Shown: piece by piece, positions 1 through 35,452 of the stretch
How the letters are laid out: each line of letters opens with the position of its first letter
Numbering within the stretch: the first letter of the stretch is position 1
NCBI GenBank assembly: GCA_044892525.1
Contig: CM097885.1
Coordinates: 115,134,001 to 115,198,000, forward strand
Direction of reading: 5' to 3'
Length of the DNA: 64,000 bases
Origin: Schmidtea polychroa
Lineage: Eukaryota
Notes under the pieces: model-generated
Seen by the model: the letters and a program-made list of their open reading frames with translations, nothing else
Told to the model about the DNA's origin: nothing
The model's database searches: none
Translations under genes and position numbers: made by a program

Positions 1-1646
1 CAGACGATATCTTATGAATTTACTATGCTGCAGACAAACAGTTGGATTTAATCGCAAACGGTGATTGTCAAGATTCTTTCTTAGCTACTCTGATCGTCAG
101 GCTGATTTTCCTGAAAGATTTTCCTCAATCTATGTGAAGTTTGTTTGGATCTATCTAAACACTCATATCCATCTAAATCCGGATTAACCTCTGTTGGGAG
201 TTCAAGCTTCCTATACGAATATCAGAAATCCCGATATAACTGAACGAAATGATAGAATTATCCTCCTAACGATCGCGCTGAGTGAAGGAAAATTTTTACT
301 CCGCAACTGGATTTTTCCATCTACCGAGTCTCATCACCCCTCATGACACACCCAAGAAGGCATTCATTGCTGCCGCCATTCTTGCACCGTCATGAGGGAC
401 CAATCAACTCCTTTACATTCAAAAAAAAAAATTAAACATTCGTATAAAAGTCATAATAATGACAGAATAAATGATGAGCAAAATAAACAAATCGAAATAC
501 CCGGCGACCATATCATCTGGGCTCCAAGTATGATGCTTTTCCCTTTTCGATCATATATTCAATTTCAGCATTTGCAAACATCTCATTGATTATTATCACC
601 TTCTCCAGTCCTAATATCTTCGCAACATCTCCTAGATGCATGCCACAAAAACTCCTCGTGGCTACTTCCTCCATTTGGCATCATACTTGAAATCACCAGA
701 GGGTATAGTCGTCGGCACCATGAAGAAAGGCAGTTTCTATTTTCAAATAAATTTATTAAATGAAATTATTCTTATTATTTACAAAAATTTACTAAAGTCA
801 ATCATAAATATCTATTAAATTCAATCATATAAGACTAATCCATAAATAACTTAACATACTTCGAGGTTTGAAAAACTGGAGTTAATCGGTTAACGCGAAG
901 GTTTTCTTGAGTAAGTTTACTGAGCTTCTTCCTAAAATCGATTTGGTTGTTTTTGAAATTAGTCCTTCGTAGTAGTTCGTAAGTCAAGTTCTGCAATCGT
1001 GAAAATTAAAGTGGTTCCTGAATGTCGTCCTGTAGAGTTTGGTTAAAAGTGGTTGTTCAAATTTAAGAATTTTACCTGTAGAGTTTGGTTAAAAGTGGTA
1101 CTCTACTAATTTTTCGCGTTTCTTATATACTATTTTTTCGTCCAATCAGGACTCAGTTAGGTTGTAATTTTTATATTTATTATTATTTAATGTTTTTATT
1201 ATAATATATTAGCCTTTAATAACTTAACTTATTTCTTATTATTATTTTATTTATTTTTCTTATTCTTATTATTTTTCTCCTATTTTTCCTGCTGATTTAT
1301 GGTTACTTTATTGCCATATGATTTTTTGTTTTAATTAGGCTTAGAGATATTTTTATTTTTATTTATTGCTTTAATTTCTCGTTTATTTTCTCTCACTTTT
1401 TCGTTTATTCTATTTCTACTTTACCCGCTGGGTGCTTTAAATCCTTTCTCTTTTGTCTTCGTTCCAATTCTTAGGGGTTTTATTTATTTATTACTTATTC
1501 TTATTTCTTTTTATGGGTATTTTATTGTTTCCTTATTTACTATTGAGGTTTGATGGTAATTTATCTTTTATTATATTTTGTTTATTTTTCGAGGTTCGCT
1601 TCCCGATTCAACCCAGTTTTTCTCTACTTCAAAATTTAGCCCAACA
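1..1646 (-). repeat. 3' LTR (partial)
   Basis: Matches 33846-35452 apart from a 39-bp indel near 345-383, a 1-nt A-run difference and at least one substitution. Identity stops at ...tttagcccaaca (1646). Confidence 0.95.
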
Positions 1647-1877
1647 AATCACTCCGGGGCCCGTTAAAATTGCGTCCCGCAATTCACATAACATCATACA
1701 TTCAAATCATACTTCCTTTGGTATCAAATCTAATCTCATAATCAACATTCACACAAACATAAAAATAAATCGACTAACTAATACTTTAATTGACAGATAA
1801 AAGACAAATAAAAGCAAGCAGTGGCCACATATGGTGACCGGATTTATATACACAAATTTATGGATAGTCACAGGATC

Positions 1878-2522
1878 TCAAAGTTCTGAATGTCGTTCCT
1901 GTCTTGGTGAATTGTTATTCGGGAATCTCTGAGAATTCTGAATTGAATGGCTGGTTGACGTTGTTGACGTGGAGAGTTGGATTGTGACGGGTATCTGGTT
2001 AGAGGATAGATTTTGTCGCGTTTGGTCAGATTGGTCTGGTGTTTGAAAACGCACTGTTCGTGTATGCTTGTTTCTTGGTCGTGGGTTCTTTCTTTTGGGT
2101 TTCTCGAATTGTGGTTGGTTTCTTCTCCATGCTCGATAGATATCATACGCTTTCCAGATGACTAGCGCGCAGATGAGGATGGTTTCACTAATTGTAGCAT
2201 AGAACAGGACTTGACTTTCTTTTGCTTCTTTCTTCACGAGGGTTTCTTTCAGAGATTGTTGGGTGGTTTGTTCTTGTAGGAGAATTTCGAGTTGTTCGAT
2301 CCTTTGGGTTTGTAAACTGAGTTGTATTTGGGCCTTTTGCCAGACGGCTTTGTTCCAACATGGTTTCTGGAGGTTGTTGTAGGGTTTTCTTTCGTTTTAT
2401 AGTTTGGTTATTGGGTCTTGTTGCTCTTCGGGACTCTTCCAACGTGTTGGGGTTGACTACCACATGGGTATTCCGTTTATTGTTATCATTATTATGGTTA
2501 TCAGGGTTGCTCCGGACCACAT
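1878..2522 (-). pseudogene. Accessory type-I membrane protein (signal peptide + coiled coil + TM), two in-frame stops
   Basis: ATG 2522 reads MWSGATLITIIMITINGIP and is in frame with the 1878-2237 ORF containing hydrophobic ISETILICALVIW. Confidence 0.55.
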
Positions 2523-2572: not shown

Positions 2573-3265
2573 TTAATTATGGTCGGGATTTCTTTTTAGT
2601 GCTTTCTCAGATGCTCTCATCACTTCCGTTTCCGCTTTTATTACTCGTTTTCTCAATTCTGGCAGTACTTCTAGTTGCTTATCTCTTTCGTCTACCTGTT
2701 GTTTTAGGATCTTTATTTTTCCTTTTAACACCTTTATTTCCTGGGTTGCTCTTTCCAGGTTGTTATGGTTCAGTATTTGTAAGAAGTCGTTTCCTCTTTC
2801 CTCGTCTTTTTCGTCGTCTATCTCTTGGTATTTGTTGTTCAGTTTCCTCATTATCTCACACTCCTTTTGTTTTTGATGTAATTGGAGTTGTAGCTCTTTC
2901 AGGCTTTCTTGGTGTTTTCGTGCTTCTGTTCTCCAATAATCATTAATGACTTCGTCTGCCTTTCTACTGGCCCTTTCCTGCCATAATTCTTCTGCAATCT
3001 TCTCCCAATTTCTTCCTCGTTTTCTTTGCTCGTGGAGCCATTCGTTCTCCTCTTCTACTTCTTTCTTCACTTCTTCTAGCAAGGTGTATTCTTTTTTCAA
3101 TACTTTAATCATTTTTCGATTGTCTCTCCATCTCTCTGCTAATCTTTCGTTCTCTTGTCTTTCTTCTTGTAATTCTTCCTTGATAGTTCTCTTCCTCTCC
3201 ACTTCTTCGACTTCAATTTCTCCCTCTTCTAGTTCAGTTGTGGCGAGTATTTCCTCTATTTTCAT
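2573..3265 (-). CDS. Accessory coiled-coil protein, 230 aa, unknown function
   Basis: Open ORF, E/K/R-rich heptads, ttgcag acceptor 2 nt before the ATG. Confidence 0.65.
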   Translation of the reverse strand: MKIEEILATTELEEGEIEVEEVERKRTIKEELQEERQENERLAERWRDNRKMIKVLKKEYTLLEEVKKEVEEENEWLHEQRKRGRNWEKIAEELWQERASRKADEVINDYWRTEARKHQESLKELQLQLHQKQKECEIMRKLNNKYQEIDDEKDEERGNDFLQILNHNNLERATQEIKVLKGKIKILKQQVDERDKQLEVLPELRKRVIKAETEVMRASEKALKRNPDHN

Positions 3266-3448: not shown

Positions 3449-4494
3449 TTACACAAAGGTCTCTTCCTGACCTACATATCCTTCATCGCTTTTCACTGAC
3501 GCTTGTAGATGGAGTGCGATGGGATCGAATGGAATATAGTTTCGAGGAATCTGAGCTCTAAGCTCCTGGACTTCGTCTCTTAATGCTCTTGATACGTTAA
3601 GTTCCTCGTCTAACAGGTATGTCAGATACCTGGTTTCGTCATCCCTTACTTCTATCTGTTTTTCTAACTCTTCCGCCTTTTCGCCGTTTTCCCATTTTTT
3701 GATCTCCTTTTCTAGGTTTTTGATGTTTTCATCATACATCTTCCTTTCATTTTCTAGTTTTTTGTTTTTTCCGGCTAGCACTATGTTCCTTTGTTCTAGT
3801 GCCCCTTTATAGCCGTTATTGTCTCGCTCCAGGTCTGTCACCTTATTCACGAGTTCAACGATTCTCCCTGACTGTTGCAGGATCATCTCTTCCATGGCAG
3901 TATTTTCCTGTTCTTTCATAGATAACTTCATGGCCAGATGCCTTTCAAATTCCATGGCCTTGGTCTGCCAGGTTTGACTTCGGGCGGCGATTTTTCTGAG
4001 CCTCCTTAGCTCCTCTCTTTGGTCAAGGTTTTCTTCCCATTTTCCTTGCTCACTCTCGTATCCTAGTCTCTGAGGCAATTCTTTCATTTCTTTTTTAATT
4101 TCTTGATGTGATCTTTTCCACTTTCTGGCTTCTGTCAATAGTTGACGAGATTTCCTTTCCTCTTTTTTGGGTTTGTAAACTGAGTAAACCGTTTTTTATT
4201 CTCGTTGGTCAGTCTTTTTCTCGACTCCTGTACTAATTGTTTTAGGTAGTGACTGTGAGCTTCCTGTCGAGTACTCTCTAGTGCTGCCCATTTGGCGGCT
4301 CTTTTACATGCCTCTGCCTCTGCTCGTAAATTTTGCACCAACCACTGGAATTGGTGGTTCTCCCATTCTCTTGCTTCTTCGAGATAGTTTCGTGTTTGGT
4401 TTGCTAGTTGCGCCATCACTTTGGCCCATCTTTCTCGGTGCATCTTATTGATTCTTATCTCGTGGTTTTGGGCTTCAGTTTGTTCTGAGGTCAT
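3449..4494 (-). pseudogene. Accessory coiled-coil protein (~350 aa) with one frameshift near 4170
   Basis: The 4135-4512 and 3449-4138 ORFs join across an A-run (EERKSRQLLTEARK). ATG 4494 has a ttcag acceptor 7 nt upstream. Confidence 0.6.
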
Positions 4495-4706: not shown

Positions 4707-6106
4707 CTACTCTGTCCTACTCTTTCCATCTCGCCTCACTGTTATCTTTTTGTATATGGTATCGTTCCTCGTCATGTCCTCTACTTTTCGCTGTAAGATG
4801 AAATTCGGTGCTCCGGATGCTGGTCCTTCTTCCTCCAATGGCATCTGATAACATACGAGGTTTCCTGCTGTATGAAAACTCTGTTCATGTATACTTTGAT
4901 GATTCATCATTGCGAGGTTTATTTTCGCTTTGAACGTCATTCGATTAGCTCGTCGTATAACCCTTTGCACATAAAAAAGAATACTGAAAAATGTGTTCCG
5001 TATGCGCTTCCGTCCCAGTTGGGATACGCTTTCATTTTCATTTTATACCCGTTTTTCCATGCATAGAATGCTGGACTTAGCAATGTTGTATCCTTTCCGT
5101 TTCTCGCTTTCTGCATTTTTTCTTTTACTCCCGTTATCTTCCATATGTAGGGAGCCGTTGGTATTAATTCGTTGAGGTCCATTTTGCTCACTCTTTGATA
5201 TAGTTCTTTCACCATATTATTGCTAGTTTCTACTAAGTCGGTCTGTATCTTCGTACTTGTTCTCGCTTCTTCAAATGCTTCTTTTTCTTGTAATAACTCC
5301 TTTACCAACGCTTTTAGCGAGATTATTTCTTTTTCTAAGTTTTCGGTTTTCCTTTCGTTTTCTTGTAATACCGTTGACCACATCTCCGCGTGTGTTGATA
5401 CGTTCTCTGCTAGATGTTGGGGTAATTCTCCTCGGTGTAATTGTTTCTGACATCCCCATTTTCCTAACACACACGTTATCTTTTTCCTTTCACATTCTCT
5501 CAGATGTTGGGCGAGTTTTATAACTCCTGATTTATTGCATTTGTTAGGGCATTCTCCTCTGAACTCTGCGCACACTTTTTCCTCTTGTAGGTTGTGATGT
5601 TGATTAGTTAATTTTCTCCAGGTATCAGTTTCTCCGCAATATTCACATTTTTCCAGCCTTTCCTCGCATCGACTTTGATGTTCTTCCTCCTCATTTGCTT
5701 TAATCACTTCCTGGCAGCGTTTACATTGAGTGATCTTATATGCACATCCCTCCATATGCTGCTTGACTTCCCATATCAATCCTCGCCAACTACATGGGGT
5801 GTTTTTACATCCTAAATTTGCATTCAACATATCTTTCACTGCCGCTTTATCCTCGTTTGTCTCTTCCAAACTTGTTATCATGGCTTCTTTACATACTGGG
5901 CACCATTGTGGTCCCTTCTTTATTATCTCTTCTACACATTCTTTGCACATTCTGCATCCACATCTGGTTTGGTGAGGCTCTTTTAATAAACTCTTGCATA
6001 TTCCACACATTACATGGTTGTGTATTTGAATTGTGGTGGATTGTCTGACTAGCTCGACAATCTCTTTGAACTCTTCTCTTTGTCGCTTGTCCATTTCTAC
6101 AATCAT
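4707..6106 (-). pseudogene. Intronless TRAF-family protein (RING, TRAF zinc fingers, coiled coil, MATH) with stop/frameshift at ~4937
   Basis: CGICKSLLKEPHQTRCGCRMCKEC..CPVC RING; repeated C/H fingers; MATH start YIWKI..SPAFY..GYKM..YPN.DG..GTHFSVFF..KG.YD. MATH continues in the 4707-4970 frame (FKAKINL..ASGAPNF..NDTIY). Confidence 0.92.
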
Positions 6107-6185: not shown

Positions 6186-6545
6186 TTATTGGCTAGAAGA
6201 GTCGGCCTCCTGTCCGCCCTCTTCCCTATTGGTTAACCATTCTGACCAGTCTTCCATCTCTACTTGCTCGGCTTCCTCCATCATTCTTTCTAATTCGATT
6301 TCTTGTCTTTGACTATACCGTGTTATTCGTTCTATCTCTCTCTGCATTTGGTTGATTTGTACCCTCTGGTCCTCAATTATTTTTAAATAACTAAATCCTT
6401 TGTTCAGACTATCTACTAAGTTCCTTTGCGCAGTGAGTCCTTGCTCCTGTAGATTTGATACTAATTGTGCTAATACGGTACATTGTTGCTTCCACATGTC
6501 CTCAGTTGTTGTATTGTGGTTTATCTCGTTGTTTGTCTGCTCCAT
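6186..6545 (-). CDS. Small accessory coiled-coil/acidic protein, unknown function
   Basis: Open ORF from ATG 6545 (MEQTNNEIN...) between AT-rich spacers. Confidence 0.5.
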   Translation of the reverse strand: MEQTNNEINHNTTTEDMWKQQCTVLAQLVSNLQEQGLTAQRNLVDSLNKGFSYLKIIEDQRVQINQMQREIERITRYSQRQEIELERMMEEAEQVEMEDWSEWLTNREEGGQEADSSSQ

Positions 6546-6690: not shown

Positions 6691-8085
6691 CTATATACAG
6701 TCATAATCCTTTCTATATTTGTGAGTTTGGAGGGGCTGAGCATTCCAGGCCTCCACCCACTGTTCTTGCTTGATTTTACTTGGTCGTTTGACTCGATGCT
6801 GAAAATTTCTGATTCTGGCCATCTCCAGTTCTCCGCGATGTCGTCTGTCTTTGATTATTTTTATCGTTCCCCCCGTTATGATTAAAAAGGCCCCAGCTAT
6901 TATTATTCCGCTGATCCACATCATCTGTTTTACGCTGATAATTTCCGATTTTTCCTTGTTTGTTGATATCGTCTCTGTACTTTTCTGATTACCGCCTTTG
7001 CCATTTCCCTTTATCATTCCTCGTATTCTCGCTATCTCCTCGTTCATACCTTCCTTTGCCATTTTTTGTATTTTTTCCATCTCTTCCTCTGACACATAAT
7101 TATCTTGATATTTCTCACTGGTTTTCTTGCGCTTTTCTTCCTCATCTTTTTCATCATTGCTTTTTCTTTTCTTCCCTCTTTTCCCAGGGTATCGTCGACA
7201 TTCTCTCTCTGTATCGTTTCTCCAGATACATACCGTGTATTCTTTTGGAGGTTGTTGCTGTGTTACATATTGTAAACAGTCTTCACCCGGTCTTAATCTT
7301 GAAATACAGACTTTGTGTTCTTTCCTTGGCTGGAGTTGCGTTATCACTGCCTCACCTCCTTTTTCCAGGTGTACCTCTTTCCCTTTAACTTTCGTTATTC
7401 TCTTCCCGTCTCGATTTCGGTATGCTTCTTGTATTCTTACTTCCGTTATCGGTTCTGTATCTTCATTTATCAACACTAGTCTCTGATATGCTCTAGACAT
7501 ACATCTTCCTAGTATGCACCTTTCTTTTAGATCCCATTCCTCTTTTAGATCCCATTGCTGATCCTGTGACCGTTTTTTCTTCCCCTGGTTTAGTTCTTCC
7601 TCCTTGTTGTCTTTGTTTTCCGTTTCTTTGGCTTCTTTTATTGTTCTCATCCCCCCATGGGCTGTTACTAACTCCATCATTGTTAGCACAATTATCATTA
7701 ATATCATATTCGTCTCTATTTCCTTGTTGGTGAAAAGTAGGCATACCCTCTGTTTTTCATTGTTCGTCTTTTCTTCTTCCTTTGTTCGGTTTCCGTGGGT
7801 GTTCTCCTCCTTTTTTGCACTTGAGTCGTTATTCCTTTGATTATTCTCTTTTGATTTCTTTTTCTCTCTGTCATCGTTTCGCCCTTTTCCATTATTATCG
7901 TCGTTATCGTCGTCTTTATCTCCCCCGCTGTCGTTTAAAATGTCGTCCTCGACATTTATATCGTTCAATAATCTGCGATATGATGTTAACACTCTGTTCC
8001 TTGCTAATTTTGCTTCGAATTCAAACTCTTTCCTCCCCGTTGCCGCATGTCTCTTTCTATTCCATTCCTTGACTAATTCTCTCAA
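6691..8085 (-). CDS. C-terminal pol extension: internal signal sequence, FN3-like ectodomain, TM helix, cytoplasmic tail
   Basis: Separated from the upstream ankyrin ORF by one in-frame TGA (8110-8112). Hydrophobic MILMIIVLTMMELVTA and MMWISGIIIAGAFLIITGG segments; ITQLQPRKEHKVCI resembles the FN3 L.P..Y.VC motif. Confidence 0.6.
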   Translation of the reverse strand: MRELVKEWNRKRHAATGRKEFEFEAKLARNRVLTSYRRLLNDINVEDDILNDSGGDKDDDNDDNNGKGRNDDREKKKSKENNQRNNDSSAKKEENTHGNRTKEEEKTNNEKQRVCLLFTNKEIETNMILMIIVLTMMELVTAHGGMRTIKEAKETENKDNKEEELNQGKKKRSQDQQWDLKEEWDLKERCILGRCMSRAYQRLVLINEDTEPITEVRIQEAYRNRDGKRITKVKGKEVHLEKGGEAVITQLQPRKEHKVCISRLRPGEDCLQYVTQQQPPKEYTVCIWRNDTERECRRYPGKRGKKRKSNDEKDEEEKRKKTSEKYQDNYVSEEEMEKIQKMAKEGMNEEIARIRGMIKGNGKGGNQKSTETISTNKEKSEIISVKQMMWISGIIIAGAFLIITGGTIKIIKDRRHRGELEMARIRNFQHRVKRPSKIKQEQWVEAWNAQPLQTHKYRKDYDCI

Positions 8086-8109
8086 TTGAATACGACGATG
8101 TTTTCCAAT

Positions 8110-8670
8110 TCACTTTTGTTCATTTTGATTTTGCGTGAATTTGAGGTCTTCCCGGTTTAGTACGATCAGTATGATTTTAGGAGTTCCTCCTTTCGTCAGC
8201 GTATTTTTAACCATTGCATTTTCTCCGTTTTCGTAGAACTCATTGATATTAATTGCATATTTATTGCTTTGTGGTATTCTCCATGTTAACAGTAACTTCA
8301 TAGCTTCTAAGTTTTTCCGTATCGTATTCCATTGGAACTGTGACGTATTCTTACAGATATTTTCTACCTCGTATCTTGTCGCATTTTTACAGATGAATCT
8401 AATCATTTCCAAGTTTGGTTGTATTGTTGCCCAATCCATGGTGGAATTTCCCTCGTTTGAGGTTTCGTCAAGTCTTGAACCTGATTGATGTAATATATGT
8501 AATGTTTTCGGGTGTATATTTGTTATTGCCGCATACATCATTGCTGTTTCTCCTTGTTCGTTTTTAGCGTTAGATTCTTCTCCTAAATCTCTAAGAATTC
8601 GCATGATTGTTATTGCTCTATTTTCTTTTGCTGCTAGTATTGCTTGTTGTAATGGTGTTCTTGAGTCTTT
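8110..8670 (-). pseudogene. Second ankyrin-repeat block of the pol extension
   Basis: TPLQQAI; NAKNEQGETAMMYAA; NEGNSTMDWA. Frameshift from the integrase ORF near 8670. Confidence 0.8.
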
Positions 8671-11194
8671 TGTTGGTATGGTGAATGCTTGTCTTTATTT
8701 TTCCTATGTCTAGATTTGTGGTCTGATCCCTTGCGTAGGTGTGTACTGTTTTTATTATTTTCGCTAGTATCGCTTCGTCAGATAAATCTCGCATTTCTTC
8801 GAAGAACACCTCTTTGGCTTTACGTATTACTATCTCGTGATCGGAGTTTATTATCTTTGCTTTACTTGTGGTTGTTATATTGTTTGGTATTTGATCGTCT
8901 TGTTTCTCAGACTCCCTGGTTGTTACTTTCTTCATTTTTATCTTTTTCCTGTTTGAACTGTTAATGCGTTCCTCCGCCGTAAGCACTTGAATAATACTTA
9001 GGTAGTTTTCTCGAATGTTATTCATGGTTTCCATCATATATAAGACACTCACAGTTTCCCAATATTTTACTTGTACTTTTTCGGTGAATTGAGATATGGA
9101 TTTTTCGAAACTGATAATTCGCTTTCTGATCAGTTGTTCGTCTTTGTGGTTTGAGAGCTTTATACCTCGTTGCAATAGTTGATTTGGAATTTCGAATAGA
9201 TGGTGTCCTCTCATAGCTTCTCTCATCAAGGTGTTTTCTCCTTTGGTAAATGTTTCGTTTATATCTACCATATAATCGTTTTTGATCGGGTTTCTCCACG
9301 AAATTAGTATTCCAGTAATGGTTATCAATTTCTCTTTGATTGCGGTTAATAGCCCGTCATACATATTTCCTATCTCTCTATTATCCTCATATGATAATAG
9401 ATCTACTAAGATTATGAAAGCTTCAGTACTTTTTCCTTTGATTGCATGATGTAGTGCATTTTTCTGATCGTGATCTTGTGTGGTTATCTTTGACCCTGTT
9501 TCCAGCAATGCTGTAATGATATCTTTAGTTTTATCCCGATTTGCTGCTATCATTAGTGGAGTGTAACCTTGATTGTTTTCTTGATTTGTCGAAATGTTAC
9601 AGTCATGAAATGCTTCAATCGTTTCCAATATTTGTTCATTATTACCAACCTTTAAAAGTTTGTGTAATGGTGTATCTCCGTAGTGGTCTGTGATCGTGAA
9701 TAATATAGGCCATTGACTTTTAACCACTCTGAGCAATGGGTGCGTTCTTTCCCGATTTGCATAATTTTCTATCATTGTTAGTAGACCTCCTAGTATTTCA
9801 AAATCCAATCTATCTTTTGCCCATCCGGGTATTTTAACTTTTACCTCTTTTATGATTCTTTCTGCTTCTGACGGTTGTAATCCTAGTCGACTGCCTGTTG
9901 GTTCGGTTACCTGTCGTAACATGTTCATTCTGTACGTTTGTGATCTTGTTGTTAATGTACGTCCTTCTGGCTGGCTAGTAGCTGTTTTCGGTATTGGTTT
10001 GCAGCGTGCAACGTTTACATATATTGGCCTTGTGAATGGATTGTTTACTAATCGTACTCTTACGTTAGTTTCTCCGACGAATAAAATCTCATACGGTCCT
10101 TTGCCATTGCGTTGTAATTTCTTGGTGGTTCCGGGAATTAATTCTGGTGTTTCGATCATCACCCAATCGCCTGTTTGAAACGTATGTTGTTTAACGTTTT
10201 TCTTTCTATCATGCAGATCTTTGTAGCTCTCCTGATAAAATTTTATGTTTAATCCTGCAGTTTCCCAGATTTCCTGCATTCTTTCCTTGAACTTCGTTAC
10301 ATAATCGTCTATTTCCATATATTGTGATATTGGTAGCTGATACTCTAAATCCATTGGCATATTACATTCTCTGCCGTACATCAACTTGAACGGACTCATC
10401 TTTGTGGATGCATGGATTGACATCCGGTAAGCCATTAGACATAATTTTATGTATTCATCCCAATCCCGTTGGTGACGGTCAACATAATTTGACAACATTT
10501 GAATGAGCGTTCCATTGAATCTTTCTGTCATACCATTTGTTTGTGGATGATACGGTGATGTTCTTAATTTTGCAATCTTGAAGTAGTTGGTTACTTCGCT
10601 CATTATTTCACTCATGAAATTTGTCCCTTGATCGGTCAGTATTTGTTTTGGCGTTCCATATCGACAACATATCTCTTCTACTAGTATTTTGGCTATTGTT
10701 TTTGCTTTCTGGTCTGCCATAGCGAACGCTTCAGGGAATTTAGTTAGATAATCCGTAATTACCAATATATAAATATTTCCTCTATCTGATTCTGGCAGTG
10801 GACCGACTACGTCCATTGATATCATTATCATTGGTTCAGCTGGTACTGGCATTGGCGTTAATGGTGCTTTCCATTTTGTTCCCGTATTTTTCCTAGTTGC
10901 GCAAGTTATACAATTTTTCACCCATTCCATTACATCCTCAGGTAACGTAGGCCAGAAGTATTTTTGTTTCATTCGTGCTAGCGTCTTTTTTGATGACATA
11001 TGTCCTCCGAGTCTTCCGTCATGATATTGCGTTAGCAAATCCTTGCGTCTATTCTCTGGGATACACATTAGTCTTTTTTCACCATCCATTATCAATAACC
11101 AATCCTTTTCTATTATATATCGGTGTCGATGTTTATCCATATGCTCTTTCAACTTTTGATCTTTCTCATATACCTCTGCTTTCCCGGTTTTCAC
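8618..11194 (-). CDS. Integrase (HHCC, DDE, GPY) fused to ankyrin repeats
   Basis: YHDGRLGGH..CITC; SMDVVGP; TDQGTNF; PYHPQTNGMTERFN; GPYEI; then GDTPLHKL, GYTPLMIAA, KNALHHAI. Confidence 0.95.
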   Translation of the reverse strand: MKTGKAEVYEKDQKLKEHMDKHRHRYIIEKDWLLIMDGEKRLMCIPENRRKDLLTQYHDGRLGGHMSSKKTLARMKQKYFWPTLPEDVMEWVKNCITCATRKNTGTKWKAPLTPMPVPAEPMIMISMDVVGPLPESDRGNIYILVITDYLTKFPEAFAMADQKAKTIAKILVEEICCRYGTPKQILTDQGTNFMSEIMSEVTNYFKIAKLRTSPYHPQTNGMTERFNGTLIQMLSNYVDRHQRDWDEYIKLCLMAYRMSIHASTKMSPFKLMYGRECNMPMDLEYQLPISQYMEIDDYVTKFKERMQEIWETAGLNIKFYQESYKDLHDRKKNVKQHTFQTGDWVMIETPELIPGTTKKLQRNGKGPYEILFVGETNVRVRLVNNPFTRPIYVNVARCKPIPKTATSQPEGRTLTTRSQTYRMNMLRQVTEPTGSRLGLQPSEAERIIKEVKVKIPGWAKDRLDFEILGGLLTMIENYANRERTHPLLRVVKSQWPILFTITDHYGDTPLHKLLKVGNNEQILETIEAFHDCNISTNQENNQGYTPLMIAANRDKTKDIITALLETGSKITTQDHDQKNALHHAIKGKSTEAFIILVDLLSYEDNREIGNMYDGLLTAIKEKLITITGILISWRNPIKNDYMVDINETFTKGENTLMREAMRGHHLFEIPNQLLQRGIKLSNHKDEQLIRKRIISFEKSISQFTEKVQVKYWETVSVLYMMETMNNIRENYLSIIQVLTAEERINSSNRKKIKMKKVTTRESEKQDDQIPNNITTTSKAKIINSDHEIVIRKAKEVFFEEMRDLSDEAILAKIIKTVHTYARDQTTNLDIGKIKTSIHHTNKRLKNTITTSNTSSKRK

Positions 11195-11206
11195 GTATTC
11201 GATAAT

Positions 11207-23025: not shown

Positions 23026-23228
23026 TTGATACTATGAATACCAATATCAAAAATCTTGTTGCTAATATTAAGAGCTTTGCATTCATACGCAACACTCAGT
23101 ATAGAAAATTTTTAAATCTCATCATTGCATAGGGATAATTAAAATTTTGTATAATAGGAATAGTTTTGATATAAATATGGTAATGCTTTGACAGTTAGAT
23201 AATATATAGAGAAATATGGGGGTGTGTG

Positions 23229-25965
23229 TTAGTCTTTGTATATGTGTTCCCTATATATGTGGTAGCTGCTGACTACGGCTGCTGTACAGGCTCTTTTTGC
23301 TAGAGCCTTAATTTCAGCTCTACTCAGACCAATTATTCTGAGGTCTTTGTCATTCTTCCTGTCCCAGGTACCGAGTGTACCAATAACGAGGGTAAGTAGA
23401 GAGGTCTTGCAGTTGTGTGCATGACCTATATCGATTGCTAGGTGTTTGTATTTCTCAAAATTATTATTCCTAGCTTGTTCAAAGTTTTTTTCACTTTCGT
23501 AAGGGACCTTTATGTCCAGGATATGAATCAATTTGTTCCGCGGGGTTTTGATAAGGAGGTCGGGGATGAGGGTGGTGTTGATCCCCATTGGGGTTTGTTC
23601 GATGTCTATATCGTATTTATGCTCGAGGAGGAAGTCGGAGACAGCTTGGAGGACATTTCTATGTTTGTTTCGGCGGGCATTGGATTTAGCAGGGCAGTGG
23701 TTAAATATGTGTGCCTGTGTTTCAGGATGAGCGTGGCAATGCCTACATAGGGTAGATTTCTTGGATTTAATTCGACGGGGCGTATAGTTTAATTTTAGGA
23801 TGTTGTTGCGTGCTCGGATCAGGAAGATAAATTGCGGGTCAGTTAGGATGTCCGTTTTAAAGAAGAAACTAGCGATGCTACTGCTACCAATGCTTTTGGC
23901 TATATGTCCTTGGCATTTCATTTCGGACCATCTATCAGCATAAATGAGGCTAATAATAGAGTGTATTTCGGATGAGGTGTCTTTAAGGTTGGAGGATGTG
24001 AAGTAATTAATTCGGTCTTTGTATTTAATTTCTAATTGGTAGGAATTTTTGAGGAAGACTATTTTAGTGGAGATGCCATATTTGAGTCGTAGTCTTATGG
24101 ATGATTTCCTGAATTTCGAGAAGAGAGATTTAGATGGAAAGTTTTTAGTGGAGTCGCCATTTAACCAGGAGATTGCAGAGTTGATGTTGCCATTTCCTCT
24201 GGCTTGACTGAGTTCGGATAGGGCGAGGTTGCGAAAATCAGTGTCAGTTGAGTTGAGGGCACGTATGAGGTGGACAATTCCCTGGATAAGGTATTCATCA
24301 ATGAGGGATGTTAACCCCAGTCCCCCAAGTTTGATGGATGCATATAGGAAATTGTTATTGAGCTCGCAAATTTTATCACCAATGGCATTTTTGATTATAG
24401 ATTTTAGTCTTTGGGTGGCGCCTCTATGGGGTATACCTGCATTATTTTTAAGGTTTCTTTCGGAGTCGAGAATACTGTGGTGAATTTCGCAGTTGCGGTA
24501 GATATAGGTAAGGCGAGAATGTATGAAAATTTGTAGGCATTGAGTTTTTGAGCAGGGTGCAGATGGGAGGCTAGAATTGTTTTGGTATCAGTTAAGGCAT
24601 TTTCAAGTCTCTCCTCAATGTTGTGCCTTACCTTATACGTGAAATCAACTCCAAGGTATCGGTAGAGGTTAGAGTCATCAATTCTGGGGAGGAGTTCGTC
24701 ATAAAGGCGGATTGGGCTATAATTGTCATCATGGTTGATATGAAAGTAACCGGATTTCGAGGGCTTAAATCGAAGGTTAACTTGTGAAGCCAGTTGTGTC
24801 GTTTCGCAAAGTGCTAGGTTTATAGAGTAGTACGAGTCAGAAATTAGTACAATATCATCGGCATAGGCAAGGATGCTAATGTTGTGCCCATGGAATAGAA
24901 AGGGATGGTGTTTTAAGACATGTTGAATTATGAAGTCTATACATAGGCAAAAGATTGTCATAGATAAGGGGCATCCTTGCTTAACTCCTTTAACAATGGG
25001 GACAGATGGGGAACGTTCTCCTTCACATTCAAAAATAGTTTGTACATCATTATACATGTCATTTATAAGTTTGATTGTATTTGGGTTGAGTCCCATATTG
25101 GTGAGAGTGTGCCATATAAGAGAATGGGGTAAGGATCCAAAAGCATCAGAGATATCGAGCCATATGATATGGAGGTCAGTTTTATTACGGATTGCAGCAT
25201 CTTTGACAAGGTGTAAGGTGAAATTGTGTTCAGCACATCCATCAGGTGCACATGTAGCCTTTTGGTTGTTAGACAGTGGGTTGCCGAGTTTTATCCAGCT
25301 CAAGAGGCGATTGTTTAGAAGTGAGGAGAATATACGGTATGAGGTGTTCATGATAGATATGGGTCTCCAGGAGCTAGCTTCATGGCTAGTCTCGGTCTTT
25401 CCAGCTTTTAGAATTAGTTTGGAGCGAAAGGTTTTCCAGGACATAGGGCAAGTAGTTGTGCGTAGTAGGCTGTTAAACAAGGATAGAAGGAATTCAAAGT
25501 CAGGTGATAGGATTCTCCAGTCAGATAGAGAGATGCCATCTATACCTGGGGCCGTATTGCTGAGTTGCTTGAAGATTGCCTTAATTTCATCGATGTCGAA
25601 AGGGTCGCAAGAGAGAGTTTCAGGAAGTGAGGGTAGTTCAATCAAAGGATTAGGCGAGCAACTTGCGAGTGTTCCAGCAAAGAGTTTAAGAATATTATCC
25701 ATAGTAGGTCTCTGGAAGGTTGGGGTATTTCTCAGGATCTTTGCGACTTCCTCCTTTGGGTTAATGGTATATTTTTTCTTTTTAATGAAGAGTAATTCGT
25801 TCTCATTACGGATTTTTTTATGTATTATGTCAGAGGGTTTTTTGGTAGTATATTTTAAAGGGTGGATGTTTGCATTTATTTTTTCCATTTCGGAAATAGC
25901 AGAGTCGGCATCAGTTTTGTTTTCGATGAGATTAAAAATAATATTCTTTATAAACTGCGGTTGTG
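23229..25965 (-). pseudogene. LINE RT + CCHC + restriction-like endonuclease, frameshift ~24530
   Basis: APGIDG, WRPISI, WLDISDAFGS, GVKQGCPLS, AYADD, YLGV, GGLGL; CRHC..ETQAHIFNHC, PDL..DIKVPYE..KY..GTLGTW. Confidence 0.92.
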
Positions 25966-27070
25966 TTTCTTTTAACCTTCCGTATTTGTGAATTAAATTT
26001 ATGGTTCTCCAGTTGCTCATCCTGAGTAATTCTGTATCGCGCAATTGGCTCATTAGTTCATGCATGGCTGGGGCTTGTCTCGCTATAAGCAAATCCCAGT
26101 TATCCTCAACTTGTTCTTGGATTTGCTTGATTAATTTATCTAAATTTCGTCGTAAAGTACATTGTTTTAGTTGTTCTAGTTTCAGCTTGATATTAAAATC
26201 GTATTCCGCCTTGGCGTCTTTAGCCCATTCGTGAATATTGGCGGGTTGCCTCTCCTTATGCAACTTCAATATTTGCGTTTCTCCTGGCCAAATTAATGCA
26301 TCAATTAGGTGCATATCTGGTCGGATTTGTTCTCCTTGGTATTGATATAGATACTCTTTCTTCCTCGAGCTGCCTAAATGCTCTCTTATCCAATCGAACA
26401 GTTCGTCCGTAACGGTATTTTTTATCCATATTCTCTCGAGTCCTTTACTTGTTCCGATCTTTATTACATAACGTATTGTATCTGCTTGTTTCATTTTTTC
26501 CATATACTTCTTTATTATCGCTTTCTCCTCGCTTGGTATTAAATCTTTTTCGTTTCTTTCCAGTTTCATTATCTTTTGTATGAAACGTCTATATGGTATA
26601 ATGTCAATGAATTCCTGGTTTCTTACCACCACTGGAAGTATTTCTTTTACTTGTTTTATCGCTTCTTCTCTTTCTTTTCTCAATTTCATCTCGATATTCT
26701 CATCTTCACTTTCGCTTGTTACATCACTTTCGCTCTCATCTTCATCTCCTTTTACTTCAATCTTTTCTTTTAGCTGTTCAATGTTTTCATTTAACTGTAA
26801 TATTTCTCCACCAAGGCTACTCACATAATCCTCCTCGTCATCCGTTGAAAATACTTTCTCTGTCGTCTTCATCACATTAATTCGTAAATTTCTCATTCTT
26901 GGTACTTTCTTTAGCTTTTTATTCTCGAATATTGTTAGTTCCTCTGAGTCTAATTCTTGTATCATCTCATGATTTAGATGGTTACTCTGTTTCCCGTTTT
27001 CGTTATTTTCCGTTTCCGCTTCTGTTTTGATTTTCTCGTGTTCCCTTTCGATTTTATCTTTTATCTTTTT
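25966..27070 (-). pseudogene. Gag extension, part 1: acidic coiled region and ubiquitin-like domain 1
   Basis: In frame with gag after a single TAG (27071-27073); UBL-like YQYQGEQIRPDMHLIDALIWPGETQILKL. Confidence 0.7.
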
Positions 27071-28990
27071 CTAGAATATTTTCTGAATTCTCTGGTTTCC
27101 CTTTAGCGGTGTTGTTGAATTTTCTCTTTTGCTTTCTATCATTGTTTCTTTTGGCTTCTCTGGTTCGATCATAGGTACAACTCTTGGATTTTTACCGTAA
27201 TTATAACAATATTGTTCCTTTATGTCTTTCACCATTCTCATCATATTTATCCTTAACGGTTGTTCTTGTCGTTGCCGAATTCGCTCTTGTTTTATTCTTT
27301 CTTCGTCAGCTTGTAATCTCTGCCATTCTTGTGCGTGTTGTTGTGCTTCATAATTGTTGAGATTTTCGGTGCTCCTTATCATACGTATATTCTGAGTTTG
27401 TTGTGGTACTTGTTCTTGTCTTGGTCTCATCATTTGTTGCATCATCTGCTTCATTTGTGAAATTTCTTGCATTACATTCATTTGTTTTCCCTCACTGGGG
27501 TTACTTTGTCGTTGCGGATTCGATGCATAATTATTATTTCGCTGGGGTGGTCGTTGTTGTTGGCTTCTTTCTCGGCACTCCCTCGAGATGTGACCTGGTT
27601 GACCACAGTTAAAACATGTTCTCATTTGGCATATATTTTCCGTGTGCCCTCGTCGTCCACACCTACTACAATTTGCGTTTCGGTAACAATCTCTATCCCA
27701 ATGCCCTAGTTTTCCGCATGTTCGACATTGTTTATTTTCGTTCATATTCCTCCTATTATTGGAGTTACTCCCGTTATTCATATTGTTACGATCGCTACTA
27801 TTCCCACTAGGTCGTCCTTGTGGTGGTTTGAAAATTTGGTGTGCTCCTGGTATAAATTGATTCATCTTTGGTTCATGATTGTTATGATCGCCATTCTCTG
27901 TTTTTGCCGTTGCTGTCGCGATTCTCCCCTCTTCTTGCATGACATTCATTTGCGCTGGGAGGTGAAGTTCGCATCTCGTGGCCCAATCTATGGCCTCTTC
28001 CAAGGTCTTACACATTTGGCATCCCACCGAGGCTCTTACCTCCTCTCGGCGAAGTCCTTCTATAAAATAACCAACAGGTTTTCCTCCGGTAAGTTTCCGT
28101 TCATGGCTTTCTTTGCTAATCTTCGCAATTCGCTTGCATATAACGTTATCGACTCGTTGGCTCTTTGTTTTCTACTTGCTAGTTCGTTTAATGCTTGATT
28201 TATCGGTTTGCTGGCTCCGAACGTTCTCCTCAAAAATGTTTTGATGCTTTTCCAATTGTTCAATGTCGTATTTCTTTCTTTCTCCTCTAGATACACCTCG
28301 AGTGCGCTATCGCACAAAAATAAAGGCATTCGTTTACTGATTGCTTCCTCTGTCCATCCGCACACCGTTGTGTAAACTTCAAAGTTGGTTATAAACGCTG
28401 CTAATTTATTCGCATTCCCATTGAAGGGTTCGCCTCTGAATTTCTCCTTATACTCTTCTGGTTTGCTAACATTCGTCATGATCGGTTCTTGAAGTTCTAC
28501 GATTTCTTTTAAATTATCTAACGATGTGGCTAAACTATGGGTGGATAGTTCTTCTGTTGATGCTGTTAGACTGTTCGTTATATCGGTTATACTTTCTCTG
28601 CTTCTAGATCGGCTTGGGGTAACTCGGGTTGTTGGGTTTTCTTTGTCGTCTATTGGTATTCTGGTTGTTTCGTTAGGTCCTTGCGATAATCCTCATTTAT
28701 GGCGATTTGATCTTGTTCTTTTGATGCTTTGCAATTGTTCTACTGAAAATAATGTATCGTATTGATTACTTGAGGATCTGAGCGCTCTTGAATTAGCCGT
28801 GATTTTTTCCTGTTGTCCCTTTGTCTCCTCTTGGTTTTTCTGTACTTTGGGCGGGTCCGACTTGGTTTGGATTGTTGGTTTCTCCGAATTCCTCCTGTGC
28901 AGGTTCTGAAATGCCTTAACTGGATTGCTTTTTCAGTCTTCTTCGGGTTCCTTCTGGACTGGTTCTGAATTGACTTGGTTGTATTGATAT
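27071..28990 (-). pseudogene. Gag: capsid-like domain and three CCHC zinc knuckles; frameshift ~28070
   Basis: EPFNG..AFITNFE; YFIEGL..TLEEAI after frame correction; CRTCGKLGHWDRDC, CSRCGRRGHTENIC, CFNCGQPGHISREC. Confidence 0.9.
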
Positions 28991-30450: not shown

Positions 30451-30930
30451 CTAACTGAAATAGATCGTGTGCTTCTCTTTTATTACACATGTACACATAG
30501 AACAACGGATTAGACTGGCGGCGCATTTGTCACAATGGCTAAGGTGCCCACAAGGTAGAATCAGAATTCTGGCAGGTCGTGTCTTGCAAATGTTGCACGT
30601 TCTCAAGGCCGCTGCTTTTTCTATGATCAAGACTCGTATTCTCTTAGACAGAGTTTTCACTTGTTCGCGGATTCTTACGTATTCAATATTCAAGGCGGGA
30701 TCGTCGAGACGTTGCTGCATCCATTGGTAGTGGATAGATAAATCAGTATCGTTATTTGTTGATCCTAATCTGTCCGTTAAAAAGTTTTGCTTGGACATTA
30801 GTGGTGCGTTGTGGCGTTGTTGTTCTAGGATCTCTATTTGTTGCAATTTCTCCCTTAAGGTCTTTAGTGAATCGTTTTCTATGTCGACGAACCGGCTTAG
30901 TCGCTGTAAATGTTGTCGGGCTTCTGACAT
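30451..30930 (-). CDS. Accessory protein with C-terminal IAP/MDM2-type RING finger (putative E3 ligase)
   Basis: CNICKTRPARILILPCGHLSHCDKCAASLIRCSMCTCVIKEKHTIYFS* at the extreme C-terminus, as in IAP RINGs; no BIR domain seen. Confidence 0.85.
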   Translation of the reverse strand: MSEARQHLQRLSRFVDIENDSLKTLREKLQQIEILEQQRHNAPLMSKQNFLTDRLGSTNNDTDLSIHYQWMQQRLDDPALNIEYVRIREQVKTLSKRIRVLIIEKAAALRTCNICKTRPARILILPCGHLSHCDKCAASLIRCSMCTCVIKEKHTIYFS

Positions 30931-31424
30931 ATCTAAATAAATGTGTTGTCATTACTCGGTCTCACTTACAAAAATAAAAATAATATAATTGTGTTGTAAT
31001 CAATATTCGTTTGGCTTTTATTCGCTATTGTTTCTAGTTTATGTGTTTTATTCAATCTTTAACACTTCCCCCTTTTTAATTTAATAAATTAAAATTAAAC
31101 AAAATTAGCCAATTCCCGTTTTCTTTTCTCATCATACTCAATCATTAGACTCATTTTTATTCATGCATACTCCATTTCAGACACATATTGTTCGTATTGT
31201 CATTTATTACACTATAATATCACACTGATTCGGTTCGGTCCCGATTTCGTTATTATCATAATTAATTAAATTATTAAATTAACACCTCATAATACAATAA
31301 TAGGCAGTTAAACAAATCAAATTGAGTGAATCCCGGCTGAGCCCCCAAAAATCATGTTGGCATATGAGGGAGAAGAAACCCATACATACATAACCGTCAA
31401 CATACCAGACCTCATCGTTTAGCT

Positions 31425-31608
31425 CAGGCACTTCCTATGCATACGCCAAATGATCATCCGAATATTCCCACGCATGAGCCCGTGGTGATGTTCCACGTTG
31501 GTACTGCCCACACAGGTCGGAAAAGGTTAGCAGGTGAGCCCCTACTTTAGGACTACTGATAACCCCCTCGCGGTTCAGGTTCCATGGTGCCTTAGAAGGA
31601 CTTACCCC
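31425..31608 (-). ncRNA. Conserved structured motif, copy A (inside the intact element)
   Basis: GTAAGTCCTTCTA..AGTAGTCCTAA..GGGGCTCACCTGC..AGTACCAA shared with four other copies; covarying stems. Confidence 0.55.
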
Positions 31609-31899
31609 TATTCGTACATCAATCACGGTCCGATCCTGGTCCAAGGGAACGACCTTCATCCTGATTTCATTCATCTCACAGCATTATTTCGTTTATTCTG
31701 ATTTCAAAAATCAAACATACGGAAACTTCACAAGACAAAATCGAACAGAAAATATATTGACACCGACAACACAAAAGTAATTACAGCGTTACCAATGATA
31801 GGTTTAACAACATTTAATCAATTTGAACATGCAGCGTTATCGACGTTTGCAAGTTGAATCACAACTCGAAGAGAAATCGAGATCGAACGTAGGTTGTTT

Positions 31900-32661
31900 C
31901 TAGGTAAAGTTTTCCCCGTCGGCGATTATCTCATCGATGTCGACAGGCAATCGACAATCCGATATAAACCTGATGCCATTGGCCGGGACAATACGAAAAA
32001 CTTCCTTCGAGGGAATCGAATGGGTAGATGATATTTCGGTTAATTTTGACTGCGCTGCAGACAATGATGCTTCGAGCGTCTTTATCGCATCTCTGCGTTT
32101 TTTATTCTTCTCGGCCCTGGTTGGATGCTTGCGTTTTCGGGGTGACGGATTTTCTTCTCCAACCGTGATGACAGTAGGTGCCACGAGAATCGGGGCCAGA
32201 ATTGGGTCAGATGGACCACCTTTCATTGGTAGGTATCCTGACAGCACTGAGGCTGGGATGGGCGGTAGATGTGAACCGTGCCCTTGACAAGTTGTGGTGG
32301 AGGTTGTAGATGGCTGATGGTGGAGAGGGAAAACGTTTGTTCCGTCGATGACAGGAAACTCGCGCACTCGCTTGGCTAATTCTGCCTCCGTATAGACTTT
32401 GTGGAGGGCTTCGGGCTGGGCCTTTATCGTCAATCGTTGATTACGACTCTCCTCCAGGAGGCTATCGCGACAATGCTCCAGTCGCAGGATCTTGCTACGC
32501 TCCTCCTTCATTTGTGGCGGGGAGAACCACGTGCCTTCGTAAAGGTCAATTCTCTTTTTCAGTGCCCCGATGTAGAGTTGAAGCTGCGCGATGTCAGCAT
32601 TTTTATCAGCGCAGGAAAGACAAGGACGAAGAGCGTTTCCAGATTGGATGGGCGTAGTCAT
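31900..32661 (-). CDS. ORF-X, 253 aa: CxxC, coiled coil, basic patch; unknown function
   Basis: Open ORF with homologues at 36.3, 39.75, 45.3 and 50.0 kb. Confidence 0.75.
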   Translation of the reverse strand: MTTPIQSGNALRPCLSCADKNADIAQLQLYIGALKKRIDLYEGTWFSPPQMKEERSKILRLEHCRDSLLEESRNQRLTIKAQPEALHKVYTEAELAKRVREFPVIDGTNVFPLHHQPSTTSTTTCQGHGSHLPPIPASVLSGYLPMKGGPSDPILAPILVAPTVITVGEENPSPRKRKHPTRAEKNKKRRDAIKTLEASLSAAQSKLTEISSTHSIPSKEVFRIVPANGIRFISDCRLPVDIDEIIADGENFT

Positions 32662-32960
32662 TCTAGAATTTTAATCAATAGTTTATGTTCATATCATTCC
32701 CTCCTATTCACAATCATTCAGTTACAACACATTCAGGCAAATTTTACTCAGTCTAGAGACTTTGGAAAGAAAACGGGGAAATGCTTGAAAACTAATTCAT
32801 TCGACGTAAGATCAACATTTAATTTAGGTTGGATGGTTCCCACCTATTACTCCCTTTTGATTTTTAGTAATTATGAATTCTACATTTTTACTTTTCGAGA
32901 AAATAATAATTGAACAATCCAACTCTTAGCATCGTGGATAGTTGATTTGGGTATGCCCAC

Positions 32961-35452
32961 TGTTGTAGGGCCAGAAATTCGGTAGCATTTATATTTATTT
33001 GTGTAGAATCAGTCCTGATAAATGAAAGTATTGCGAACTATATTTTATAATTAATATATTAGGAATTAAAATATAATATTTTCCAAAAACGCGCCATGCT
33101 CGTTGTCGTGGTGACGCCTACACGTGTGTGTTTGTATGTCATGTTTCGTCTCTACGACGCGGCTTATCATGCTTACTGGATCAGTCTGGACTCATGCCTT
33201 TCAAGCAAATTCATCTATCCACTCTCTCGCCCTTACACACAGTTCTACTATCCTGAGCAATTACGATTACGAAATTATGATGTCATAGTGTAGTTTACTA
33301 TCCAGATTTATTACCATCCTACTGAGATGCATTCTATTTTAAGGCGTAATAATGCGTGTATTTCCGAGACACAGTCGATTAAGATTTCTACTAGAAGTTT
33401 TATGAGCAACCATATTCTAGATGGTAGATGACCAATTCGGGGGATAATAGGTGAACTGGTGTTGGAAATCTAATTTTTATCGTACGGACGACTCAAGATA
33501 ATCACTTGTCAGTGCATCAACTGAATAAGTCAGTACGGAAATTGGTATCTTATCATTCCTACCAGATTCCCGTCGGTCGTTTAATTCTATTAGCCACAGT
33601 TTGACTGAAATTCATTTATCAATTATCTGACAACCTCGACCGCGGCTTCCTAATGCAATTAACAATTTACCGATGACACTGTCAGTGGTTGATCTCATCT
33701 CTATCGTCGATAGTCCGATAATTGCTCATGATTTATTTACCTTATTTGCAGAAAACGGCGCTTATCAGAAATCCGAGTGTCAACAATCAAGGCTATAAGT
33801 ACATCCCCTATGGGTTTCATCGCTAACGTGCTGGCAATCCAAATCAGACGATATCTTATGAATTTACTATGCTGCAGACAAACAGTTGGATTTAATCGCA
33901 AACGGTGATTGTCAAGATTCTTTCTTAGCTACTCTGATCGTCAGGCTGATTTTCCTGAAAGATTTTCCTCAATCTATGTGAAGTTTGTTTGGATCTATCT
34001 AAACACTCATATCCATCTAAATCCGGATTAACCTCTGTTGGGAGTTCAAGCTTCCTATACGAATATCAGAAATCCCGATATAACTGAACGAAATGATAGA
34101 ATTATCCTCCTAACGATCGCGCTGAGTGAAGGAAAATTTTTACTCCGCAACTGGATTTTTCCATCTACCGAGTCTCATCACCCCTCATGCACCGTCATGA
34201 GGGACCAATCAACTCCTTTACATTCAAAAAAAAAAAATTAAACATTCGTATAAAAGTCATAATAATGACAGAATAAATGATGAGCAAAATAAACAAATCG
34301 AAATACCCGGCGACCATATCATCTGGGCTCCAAGTATGATGCTTTTCCCTTTTCGATCATATATTCAATTTCAGCATTTGCAAACATCTCATTGATTATT
34401 ATCACCTTCTCCAGTCCTAATATCTTCGCAACATCTCCTAGATGCATGCCACAAAAACTCCTCGTGGCTACTTCCTCCATTTGGCATCATACTTGAAATC
34501 ACCAGAGGGTATAGTCGTCGGCACCATGAAGAAAGGCAGTTTCTATTTTCAAATAAATTTATTAAATGAAATTATTCTTATTATTTACAAAAATTTACTA
34601 AAGTCAATCATAAATATCTATTAAATTCAATCATATAAGACTAATCCATAAATAACTTAACATACTTCGAGGTTTGAAAAACTGGAGTTAATCGGTTAAC
34701 GCGAAGGTTTTCTTGAGTAAGTTTACTGAGCTTCTTCCTAAAATCGATTTGGTTGTTTTTGAAATTAGTCCTTCGTAGTAGTTCGTAAGTCAAGTTCTGC
34801 AATCGTGAAAATTAAAGTGGTTCCTGAATGTCGTCCTGTAGAGTTTGGTTAAAAGTGGTTGTTCAAATTTAAAAATTTTACCTGTAGAGTTTGGTTAAAA
34901 GTGGTACTCTACTAATTTTTCGCGTTTCTTATATACTATTTTTTCGTCCAATCAGGACTCAGTTAGGTTGTAATTTTTATATTTATTATTATTTAATGTT
35001 TTTATTATAATATATTAGCCTTTAATAACTTAACTTATTTCTTATTATTATTTTATTTATTTTTCTTATTCTTATTATTTTTCTCCTATTTTTCCTGCTG
35101 ATTTATGGTTACTTTATTGCCATATGATTTTTTGTTTTAATTAGGCTTAGAGATATTTTTATTTTTATTTATTGCTTTAATTTCTCGTTTATTTTCTCTC
35201 ACTTTTTCGTTTATTCTATTTCTACTTTACCCGCTGGGTGCTTTAAATCCTTTCTCTTTTGTCTTCGTTCCAATTCTTAGGGGTTTTATTTATTTATTAC
35301 TTATTCTTATTTCTTTTTATGGGTATTTTATTGTTTCCTTATTTACTATTGAGGTTTGATGGTAATTTATCTTTTATTATATTTTGTTTATTTTTCGAGG
35401 TTCGCTTCCCGATTCAACCCAGTTTTTCTCTACTTCAAAATTTAGCCCAACA
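32961..35452 (-). repeat. 5' LTR, about 2.49 kb
   Basis: Right end is fixed by the repeat boundary (TGTTGGGCT on minus). Left end is inferred from plus-strand TGTTGTAGGG at 32961, which gives TGTTG...CAACA termini. Confidence 0.8.
34877..34952 (-). promoter_or_regulatory. LTR promoter: CCAAT box, TATA box and downstream 5' splice donor
   Basis: ATTGG/CCAAT at 34948-34952; GTATATAAG at 34936-34928; CAG|GTAAAA donor at 34882/34881. The same layout occurs in the related LTR at 43.2 kb. Confidence 0.65.

Follow-up and report, generated by a model that had tools for sequence, protein, structure and literature searches.

The element considered here lies on the minus strand of a 64,000-nucleotide stretch of the Schmidtea polychroa genome (contig CM097885.1, positions 115,134,001 to 115,198,000; hereafter 'the window', in whose coordinates all positions are given), and its closest described relatives are the giant Ty3/Gypsy retrotransposons, bearing long terminal repeats (LTRs), that are known as Burro. 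According to the part of PMC6431247 available to us, which in turn cites Jurka 2007 and Grohme et al. 2018, these include Burro-1/GYPSM1 of Schmidtea mediterranea and an element of Dugesia tigrina. Burro/GYPSM1 exceeds 30 kb, with an internal region of up to 25 kb and an ORF1 of 4,873 aa, and its domains comprise a three-knuckle Gag and the MATH_TRAF, Ubi/SUMO-like, BCL2, ankyrin and BIR domains, together with accessory open reading frames (ORFs); env is in frame between gag and pol. The same text treats the cargo as variable between Burro members, notes motifs in Burro-2, -3 and -4, and puts forward the hypothesis that Burro is a possible provirus meddling with apoptosis and ubiquitination. 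Burro is also mentioned as known in the available part of PMC11410931. A second comparison is offered by Smed_errantivirus_1-6, which PMC13524379 (available likewise in part) describes as platyhelminth GAG-ENV-POL errantiviruses with an env of the herpes simplex virus (HSV)/gB type; the main text of that source, as available, does not contain the words 'Burro', 'accessory' or 'ankyrin', and its table gives no tRNA type for the six.

The locus very probably holds a giant Burro-type Ty3/Gypsy LTR retrotransposon in a defective copy, one that resembles an endogenous errantivirus, comes from a recently active family and has the cargo and Env roles that we propose below. An initial annotation of the window had recognized a Ty3/Gypsy element with gag, env and pol, and Pfam matches and catalytic motifs on the minus strand bear this out. 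The hallmarks of the group are present, namely the order protease, reverse transcriptase, RNase H and integrase (PR-RT-RH-IN), LTRs ending in TG..CA, a short target duplication and a tRNA primer site. The termini are as follows:

1..1646, minus strand: 3' LTR, the part within the window (whole LTR 4,136 bp; ends TG..CA)
31330..31347, minus strand: primer-binding site, 18 nt complementary to the 3' end of genomic tRNA-Pro(TGG) plus CCA
31355..35452, minus strand: 5' LTR (4,098 bp; TG..CA)
35453..35456, no strand assigned: target-site duplication, 4 bp (the same 4 bp flanks the other LTR)

Comparison against the upstream DNA placed the start of the left terminal repeat 2,490 bp before the window. 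The two LTRs differ by 7 substitutions and 2 indels, and the primer-binding site sits 7 nt from the 5' LTR. The whole element spans 37,942 bp, or ~30,030 bp in its native form without two nested insertions (7.9 kb in total), with a native internal region of ~22 kb; the 36.3 and 28.4 kb given initially were too small. LTRs of ~2.5 kb, as also proposed, are ruled out by the direct repeat, which extends on to 31355; the shorter reading probably arose from an internal LTR stretch at 32961-32990 that resembles an LTR end plus a primer-like site. In this genome tRNA-Pro(TGG) gives 1,552 pattern matches, and its genes form a long tandem array with a 475-bp period near 130.9 Mb on one contig.

Many relatives of the element occur in the genome at 84-93% nucleotide identity, and ten siblings were taken among the best matches. 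Ratios of nonsynonymous to synonymous substitution (dN/dS) were pooled over pairwise comparisons of the window copy and 9-10 siblings for 25 segments. The siblings encode a single polyprotein in the order Gag, ubiquitin-like, Bcl-2-like, gB-type Env, PR, RT, RNase H, IN, ankyrin. In three of the ten the frame is free of stops from Gag to tail (4,733-4,808 codons), with breaks in the remaining seven. When 150 copies were scored by means of the Bcl-2-like domain, 62 fell, by hand count, in frames 4,700 codons long or longer. Those 150 were scored of 848 candidates, so that the figure is a minimum (at least 150) and not a copy number. The corresponding regions of the window copy are:

27071..28782, minus strand: Gag, with a capsid-like core (Retrotrans_gag) and three CCHC knuckles; one stop and one frameshift here
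25955..27070, resuming at 20296-21216, minus strand: acidic low-complexity polyprotein region; dN/dS 0.10-0.11
20116..20295, minus strand: ubiquitin-like domain, a weak match (Pfam E 0.006); dN/dS 0.08
19090..19545, minus strand: Bcl-2-like domain, its final residues past an insertion at ~15880-15918; dN/dS 0.04
13508..15800, minus strand: Env, gB-like (class III-type); PF24664 E 9e-73; dN/dS 0.06
11913..13400, minus strand: aspartic protease (DTG), conserved spacer and reverse transcriptase (YIDD); Pfam and catalytic motifs
11207..11770, minus strand: RNase H; PF17917 E 1e-40
10001..11206, minus strand: integrase; HHCC and DDE motifs; dN/dS 0.02
8110..9700, minus strand: two ankyrin-repeat blocks after the integrase; Pfam Ank_2 E 7e-9 and 3.5e-10; dN/dS 0.07
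6691..8109, minus strand: polyprotein C-terminal tail (hydrophobic segment, signal-like; region with Cys; transmembrane segment); dN/dS 0.14

Since one frame runs across these domains in the siblings, the ubiquitin-like, Bcl-2-like and ankyrin frames of the window and the frame at 6691-8109 are pieces of the polyprotein, split by stops, frameshifts and insertions; the continuous frame likewise rules out the first three as stand-alone genes. The element is less like a complex retrovirus than the initial annotation had it, since of the five cargo types named there three lie within the Gag-Env-Pol polyprotein. Env, a fusion glycoprotein of Monjiviricetes type by Pfam, shares its frame in the siblings with the Gag part before it and Pol after it; in the window it is intact, with a hydrophobic leader and a transmembrane segment at 14056, and is under selection. 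The spacer between PR and RT is conserved (dN/dS 0.07) and has homologues in three other families, but no Pfam match. The tail is a probable second membrane protein, judging by its predicted segments, and gave no match in Pfam, PDB or Atlas; a fibronectin-III-like ectodomain suspected there by eye found no support in any of the three. We also set aside a hydrophobic motif that recurs at domain borders (score 11, against 3.1 in shuffles), as the pattern was picked post hoc and the test is circular.

The family is young and recently active. Six of the ten siblings have an end-to-end LTR-pair match; they are 30.26-30.60 kb long, and identity between the paired LTRs is 99.6-99.98%; of the others, two have split LTR rows and two none. 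Perfect 4-bp duplications flank five of the eight siblings that have LTR-pair rows. The RT is 97-98% identical to that of five siblings and 48-50% identical to those of three further families of this genome that also carry env. A 30-row RT tree united the family in one clade (100/97) and made an unnamed env-PR-RT protein its sister (100/99), and a weaker group around it (85/89) took in the same three families; no named Burro sequence turned up in this comparison.

Of the ten siblings, 9 or 10 carry any given cargo segment, and the order is identical. Over all 25 segments dN/dS ranged from 0.02 (the value for RT, RH and IN) to 0.46, with the cargo at 0.04-0.46, so that the cargo anticipated by the initial annotation is neither absent from other copies nor neutral in them. 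Nucleotide-based alignments of 11 segments gave 0.03-0.27 in the true frame against 0.75-4.9 in shifted frames, and a non-coding leader control gave 0.57-0.91. Every ORF, cargo included, is under purifying selection, and the contrast to the controls is large; the cargo is maintained by the replicating element. The window copy, with its two foreign insertions and numerous breaks, is a nest in its own right, and might suggest that the cargo is host DNA captured passively, or that separate insertions came to be nested by chance. The presence, constant order and purifying selection of the segments across siblings already refute that explanation, which we regard as extremely improbable. Contigs of one run guessed to be RNA accounted for 30 of 30 bins, and two other such runs gave 25 and 17; these are not counted as evidence.

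Seven accessory ORFs stand apart from the polyprotein; the LTR and the leader hold one each, and the other five lie downstream of pol (119, 462, 345, 233 and 211 aa, that of 462 aa being a TRAF):

31900..32661, minus strand: LTR ORF, 253 aa, two copies per element; no family match; dN/dS 0.09
30451..30930, minus strand: leader accessory ORF, 159 aa; C-terminal IAP-type RING; dN/dS 0.14
6186..6545, minus strand: accessory ORF, 119 aa; no family match; dN/dS 0.15
4707..6106, minus strand: TRAF, full-length and intronless; RING, Cys/His-rich fingers, coiled coil and MATH; 462 aa in sibling
3449..4494, minus strand: accessory ORF, ~345 aa; coiled-coil-like by sequence; frameshifted here; dN/dS 0.06-0.07
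2573..3265, minus strand: accessory ORF, ~233 aa; charged, coiled-coil-like by sequence; dN/dS 0.16
1878..2522, minus strand: accessory ORF, ~211 aa (sibling length); hydrophobic N-terminus and one transmembrane segment; two stops in the window copy

The initial annotation had counted at least seven, for a different set that included the ubiquitin-like, Bcl-2-like and ankyrin parts of the polyprotein. As for the types of cargo named, TRAF, the IAP-type RING and ankyrin stand, Bcl-2-like stands at the level of profile and fold, and the ubiquitin-like match is weak in the window, with another match, between Gag and Bcl-2, in another family (E 2e-4). The TRAF matches Pfam MATH at E 2e-25 and, as top PDB matches, TRAF3/TRAF2 at E 1e-29, with dN/dS 0.19. 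Its window copy is frameshifted near 4.95 kb; among scored full-length copies, 86 of 92 lack an internal stop. A homologue search returned none at E 1e-10, and the donor gene is for this reason not placed. The leader RING is closest to the cIAP1/XIAP RINGs in PDB (E 8e-9), and no BIR domain was matched in the window ORFs or in the sibling pieces scanned, only the IAP-type RING. The ORF at 1878..2522 is the least conserved (dN/dS 0.46, or 0.27 by nucleotide-based alignment) and has no Pfam match. About 0.8 kb to the right of the element, at 36295-37491, part of a related LTR lies inverted and in decay; it includes the LTR ORF and has 75-78% identity.

The Bcl-2-like assignment is weak from a single sequence (Pfam E 0.03), and single-sequence searches gave ESM Atlas scores all below 0.8 and nothing in PDB; the single-sequence fold, with a predicted local distance difference test (pLDDT) of 46, had no meaningful match in two structure libraries. 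A representative search with the domain returned two matches in repeat-rich proteins, and the one scanned was unrelated. Four further regions with an env were scanned (three families), and each had a Bcl-2 match immediately upstream of it (E 2e-6 to 5e-3); a fifth comparison region, around a small Bcl-2 match, held no Burro-like element. An alignment of five rows, from which one sibling row with a stop was left out, matched six Bcl-2 sequences of this genome with 94% hhalign probability (E 1.3e-7), and the five-row profile ranked Bcl-2/Bcl-xL first in PDB (best E 8e-4). For the alignment-based model, of low confidence (pLDDT 51), all listed Foldseek rows belonged to the Bcl-2 family, including the Epstein-Barr virus (EBV) BHRF1 structure (best E 0.02, TM-score ~0.5). 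At the level of profile and modelled fold, the assignment holds. At least three other Gag-Bcl2-Env-Pol families occur in the genome. Their polyproteins are shorter (for two families, 3,053 and 3,334 codons), and neither TRAF nor ankyrin was matched in the tiles of these families that were examined. Judging by these sequence matches, the Bcl-2-env module is spread more widely than the other cargo. The genome also holds a multicopy small Bcl-2-like gene, split by a probable intron that is short, of low complexity and contains a stop.

These features suggest how the element might work. Its genomic RNA would be translated into the giant polyprotein, which the element's protease, together with signal peptidase acting at two hydrophobic leaders, would cut into capsid, enzymes, fusion protein and free ubiquitin-like, Bcl-2-like and ankyrin products; we propose this cleavage from what retroviral polyproteins do. 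The leaders, one before env and one before the tail, would route two proteins to membranes, and reverse transcription would be primed by tRNA-Pro. Going by the functions of their families, the Bcl-2-like, TRAF and IAP-RING products most likely ensure the survival of the producing or receiving cell and dampen stress or immune signalling during replication, and Env most likely lets the element pass between cells. Large DNA viruses (herpesviruses, poxviruses and baculoviruses) carry viral Bcl-2 and IAP genes. The element resembles them in holding the same classes of host-derived death regulators and differs in being a retroelement, in carrying three cargo types as polyprotein domains, and in being known here from sequence alone. 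Infectivity and host suppression are inferred from the functions of the families concerned. The fullest version of this idea, an active enveloped planarian virus that spreads between cells, stem cells included, and blocks death and immune signalling through its Bcl-2-like protein, TRAF and IAP-type E3, we consider unlikely.

Several points weigh against the account given above. No canonical polypurine tract was found ahead of the 3' LTR, where the stretch is conserved and GC-rich, not purine-rich. The BH1 NWGR motif is not kept in the Bcl-2-like domain, and both models of that domain are of low confidence (pLDDT 46 and 51). The pooled dN/dS values are not independent, because the copies share ancestry, and their bootstrap intervals are too narrow. 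Purifying selection, moreover, means that the cargo is useful to the element and is not proof of action on host immunity. The cargo might instead serve the element's own cycle (assembly, budding, ubiquitin-dependent trafficking or polyprotein processing): the ubiquitin-like, Bcl-2-like and ankyrin parts are produced one-to-one with Gag and Env, the BH1 region is degenerate, and four of the seven accessory ORFs, plus the LTR ORF, have no family match. Against this, the TRAF lacks none of the domains that a signalling TRAF has, the RING of the leader most closely resembles those of cIAP/XIAP, and the Bcl-2 fold is kept across families whose RT is ~50% identical to that of the window family, and we judge a purely internal role somewhat doubtful.

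Compared by published description, the element shares with Burro a length of ~30 kb or more, a polyprotein near 4,800-5,100 aa with a CCHC Gag at its N-terminus, ubiquitin-like and BCL2-like domains and then env in frame ahead of PR-RT-RH-IN, as well as ankyrins, TRAF/MATH and accessory ORFs. That such size is not in itself new had been anticipated, given the >30-kb Burro already described (PMC6431247, in part). The differences are several. MATH lies inside the Burro-1 polyprotein and in an upstream ORF in D. tigrina, whereas here it belongs to a RING-to-MATH TRAF downstream of pol, and no MATH was found in the first 1,499 or last 1,000 sibling residues or in the middle pieces of the window. 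A BIR domain is among those given for GYPSM1 and is recorded in Burro-2 to -4 as well, whereas the window ORFs and the sibling pieces scanned showed none, only the IAP-type RING. The dUTPase-like domain that is a Burro-type trait between PR and RT has a possible counterpart here in the conserved spacer, for which Pfam gave no match. The conserved 253-aa ORF within the LTR is a further difference. None of the three BURRO1 probe and quantitative PCR primers in the available part of PMC8532177 matched the window with as many as 3 mismatches allowed, and one of the primers had no match genome-wide at up to 1 mismatch. Because TRAF/MATH lies outside the polyprotein and the BURRO1 primers find no match, these sequence comparisons indicate that the family is not Burro-1.

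It is quite possible, if not the likelier case, that the family is Burro-2, -3 or -4, or a direct orthologue of one, and then even the family would be known. The size, polyprotein length and domain set fit, as do the motifs noted in those three members (PMC6431247, in part). The comparison with Burro-2 to -4, however, is one of published descriptions and not of sequences, and the primer result bears on Burro-1 alone. The likeness to Smed_errantivirus_1-6 extends to the gag-env-pol order, the gB-type env and the Ty3/Gypsy pol, but Env differs from all six Schmidtea rows, the nearest (Smed_errantivirus_5) being identical at only 29 of 60 residues (~48%, counted by eye; PMC13524379, in part).

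The architecture and the host-modulation idea, put forward in the initial annotation, were thus largely anticipated by Burro/GYPSM1 in the available text of PMC6431247, and the surprise is small because both are already in print. What is added is that all cargo ORFs are conserved and under purifying selection, in dozens of uninterrupted and very recent copies, a point left open in that text; our literature search, which did not cover Grohme 2018 and its supplement, found no such selection analysis. The idea of host tinkering is now testable in an animal with RNA interference. Planarian TRAF gene counts may also include retroelement copies. The available part of PMC6109357 reports a planarian expansion, with 121 MATH domains, and that of PMC6824462 reports decay of traf, E3-ligase and ankyrin mRNAs guided by PIWI-interacting RNAs (piRNAs). 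This family alone has at least 92 TRAF copies, and its cargo classes are those of the piRNA targets in the latter source. On the fullest version of the idea given above, the intronless TRAF copies (90+) and the ankyrin cargo may also account for some of the TRAF expansion and some of the piRNA targeting.

The window copy is defective. Apart from its roughly eight stops and six frameshifts it has two insertions, both of which the initial annotation had noted and both of which are absent from all ten siblings:

15919..19089, no strand assigned: nested DNA transposon, 3,171 bp; 14-bp terminal inverted repeats, 8-bp target duplication, 776-codon frame
21217..25954, minus strand: nested non-LTR retrotransposon, 5'-truncated; RT and C-terminal zinc-finger/endonuclease-like region

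The DNA transposon, which we take from its termini to be hAT-like, interrupts the Bcl-2-like domain just ahead of a GGW motif, and its 776-codon frame has no Pfam or useful PDB match. The non-LTR insert carries 14-bp and 87-bp tandem repeats in its 3' part and is fused in frame to the acidic region. About eight nonsense stops fall in ~19.5 kb of coding sequence (1878-28782), against about one predicted from the 0.17% LTR divergence. The defective copy may have been templated in trans by an already defective element, or the LTRs may have been homogenised later.

Elsewhere in the window, a perfect 578-bp inverted repeat with arms 4.4 kb apart, and with nested imperfect inverted repeats both between these arms and around them (54520-60032), probably represents DNA elements of the foldback or miniature inverted-repeat transposable element (MITE) type. 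A weak DUF4371 match at 63087-63548 (E 2e-4) is probably a DNA transposon remnant, and a proteasome subunit match at 52185-52832 (PF00227, E 3e-22) is probably a host gene exon.

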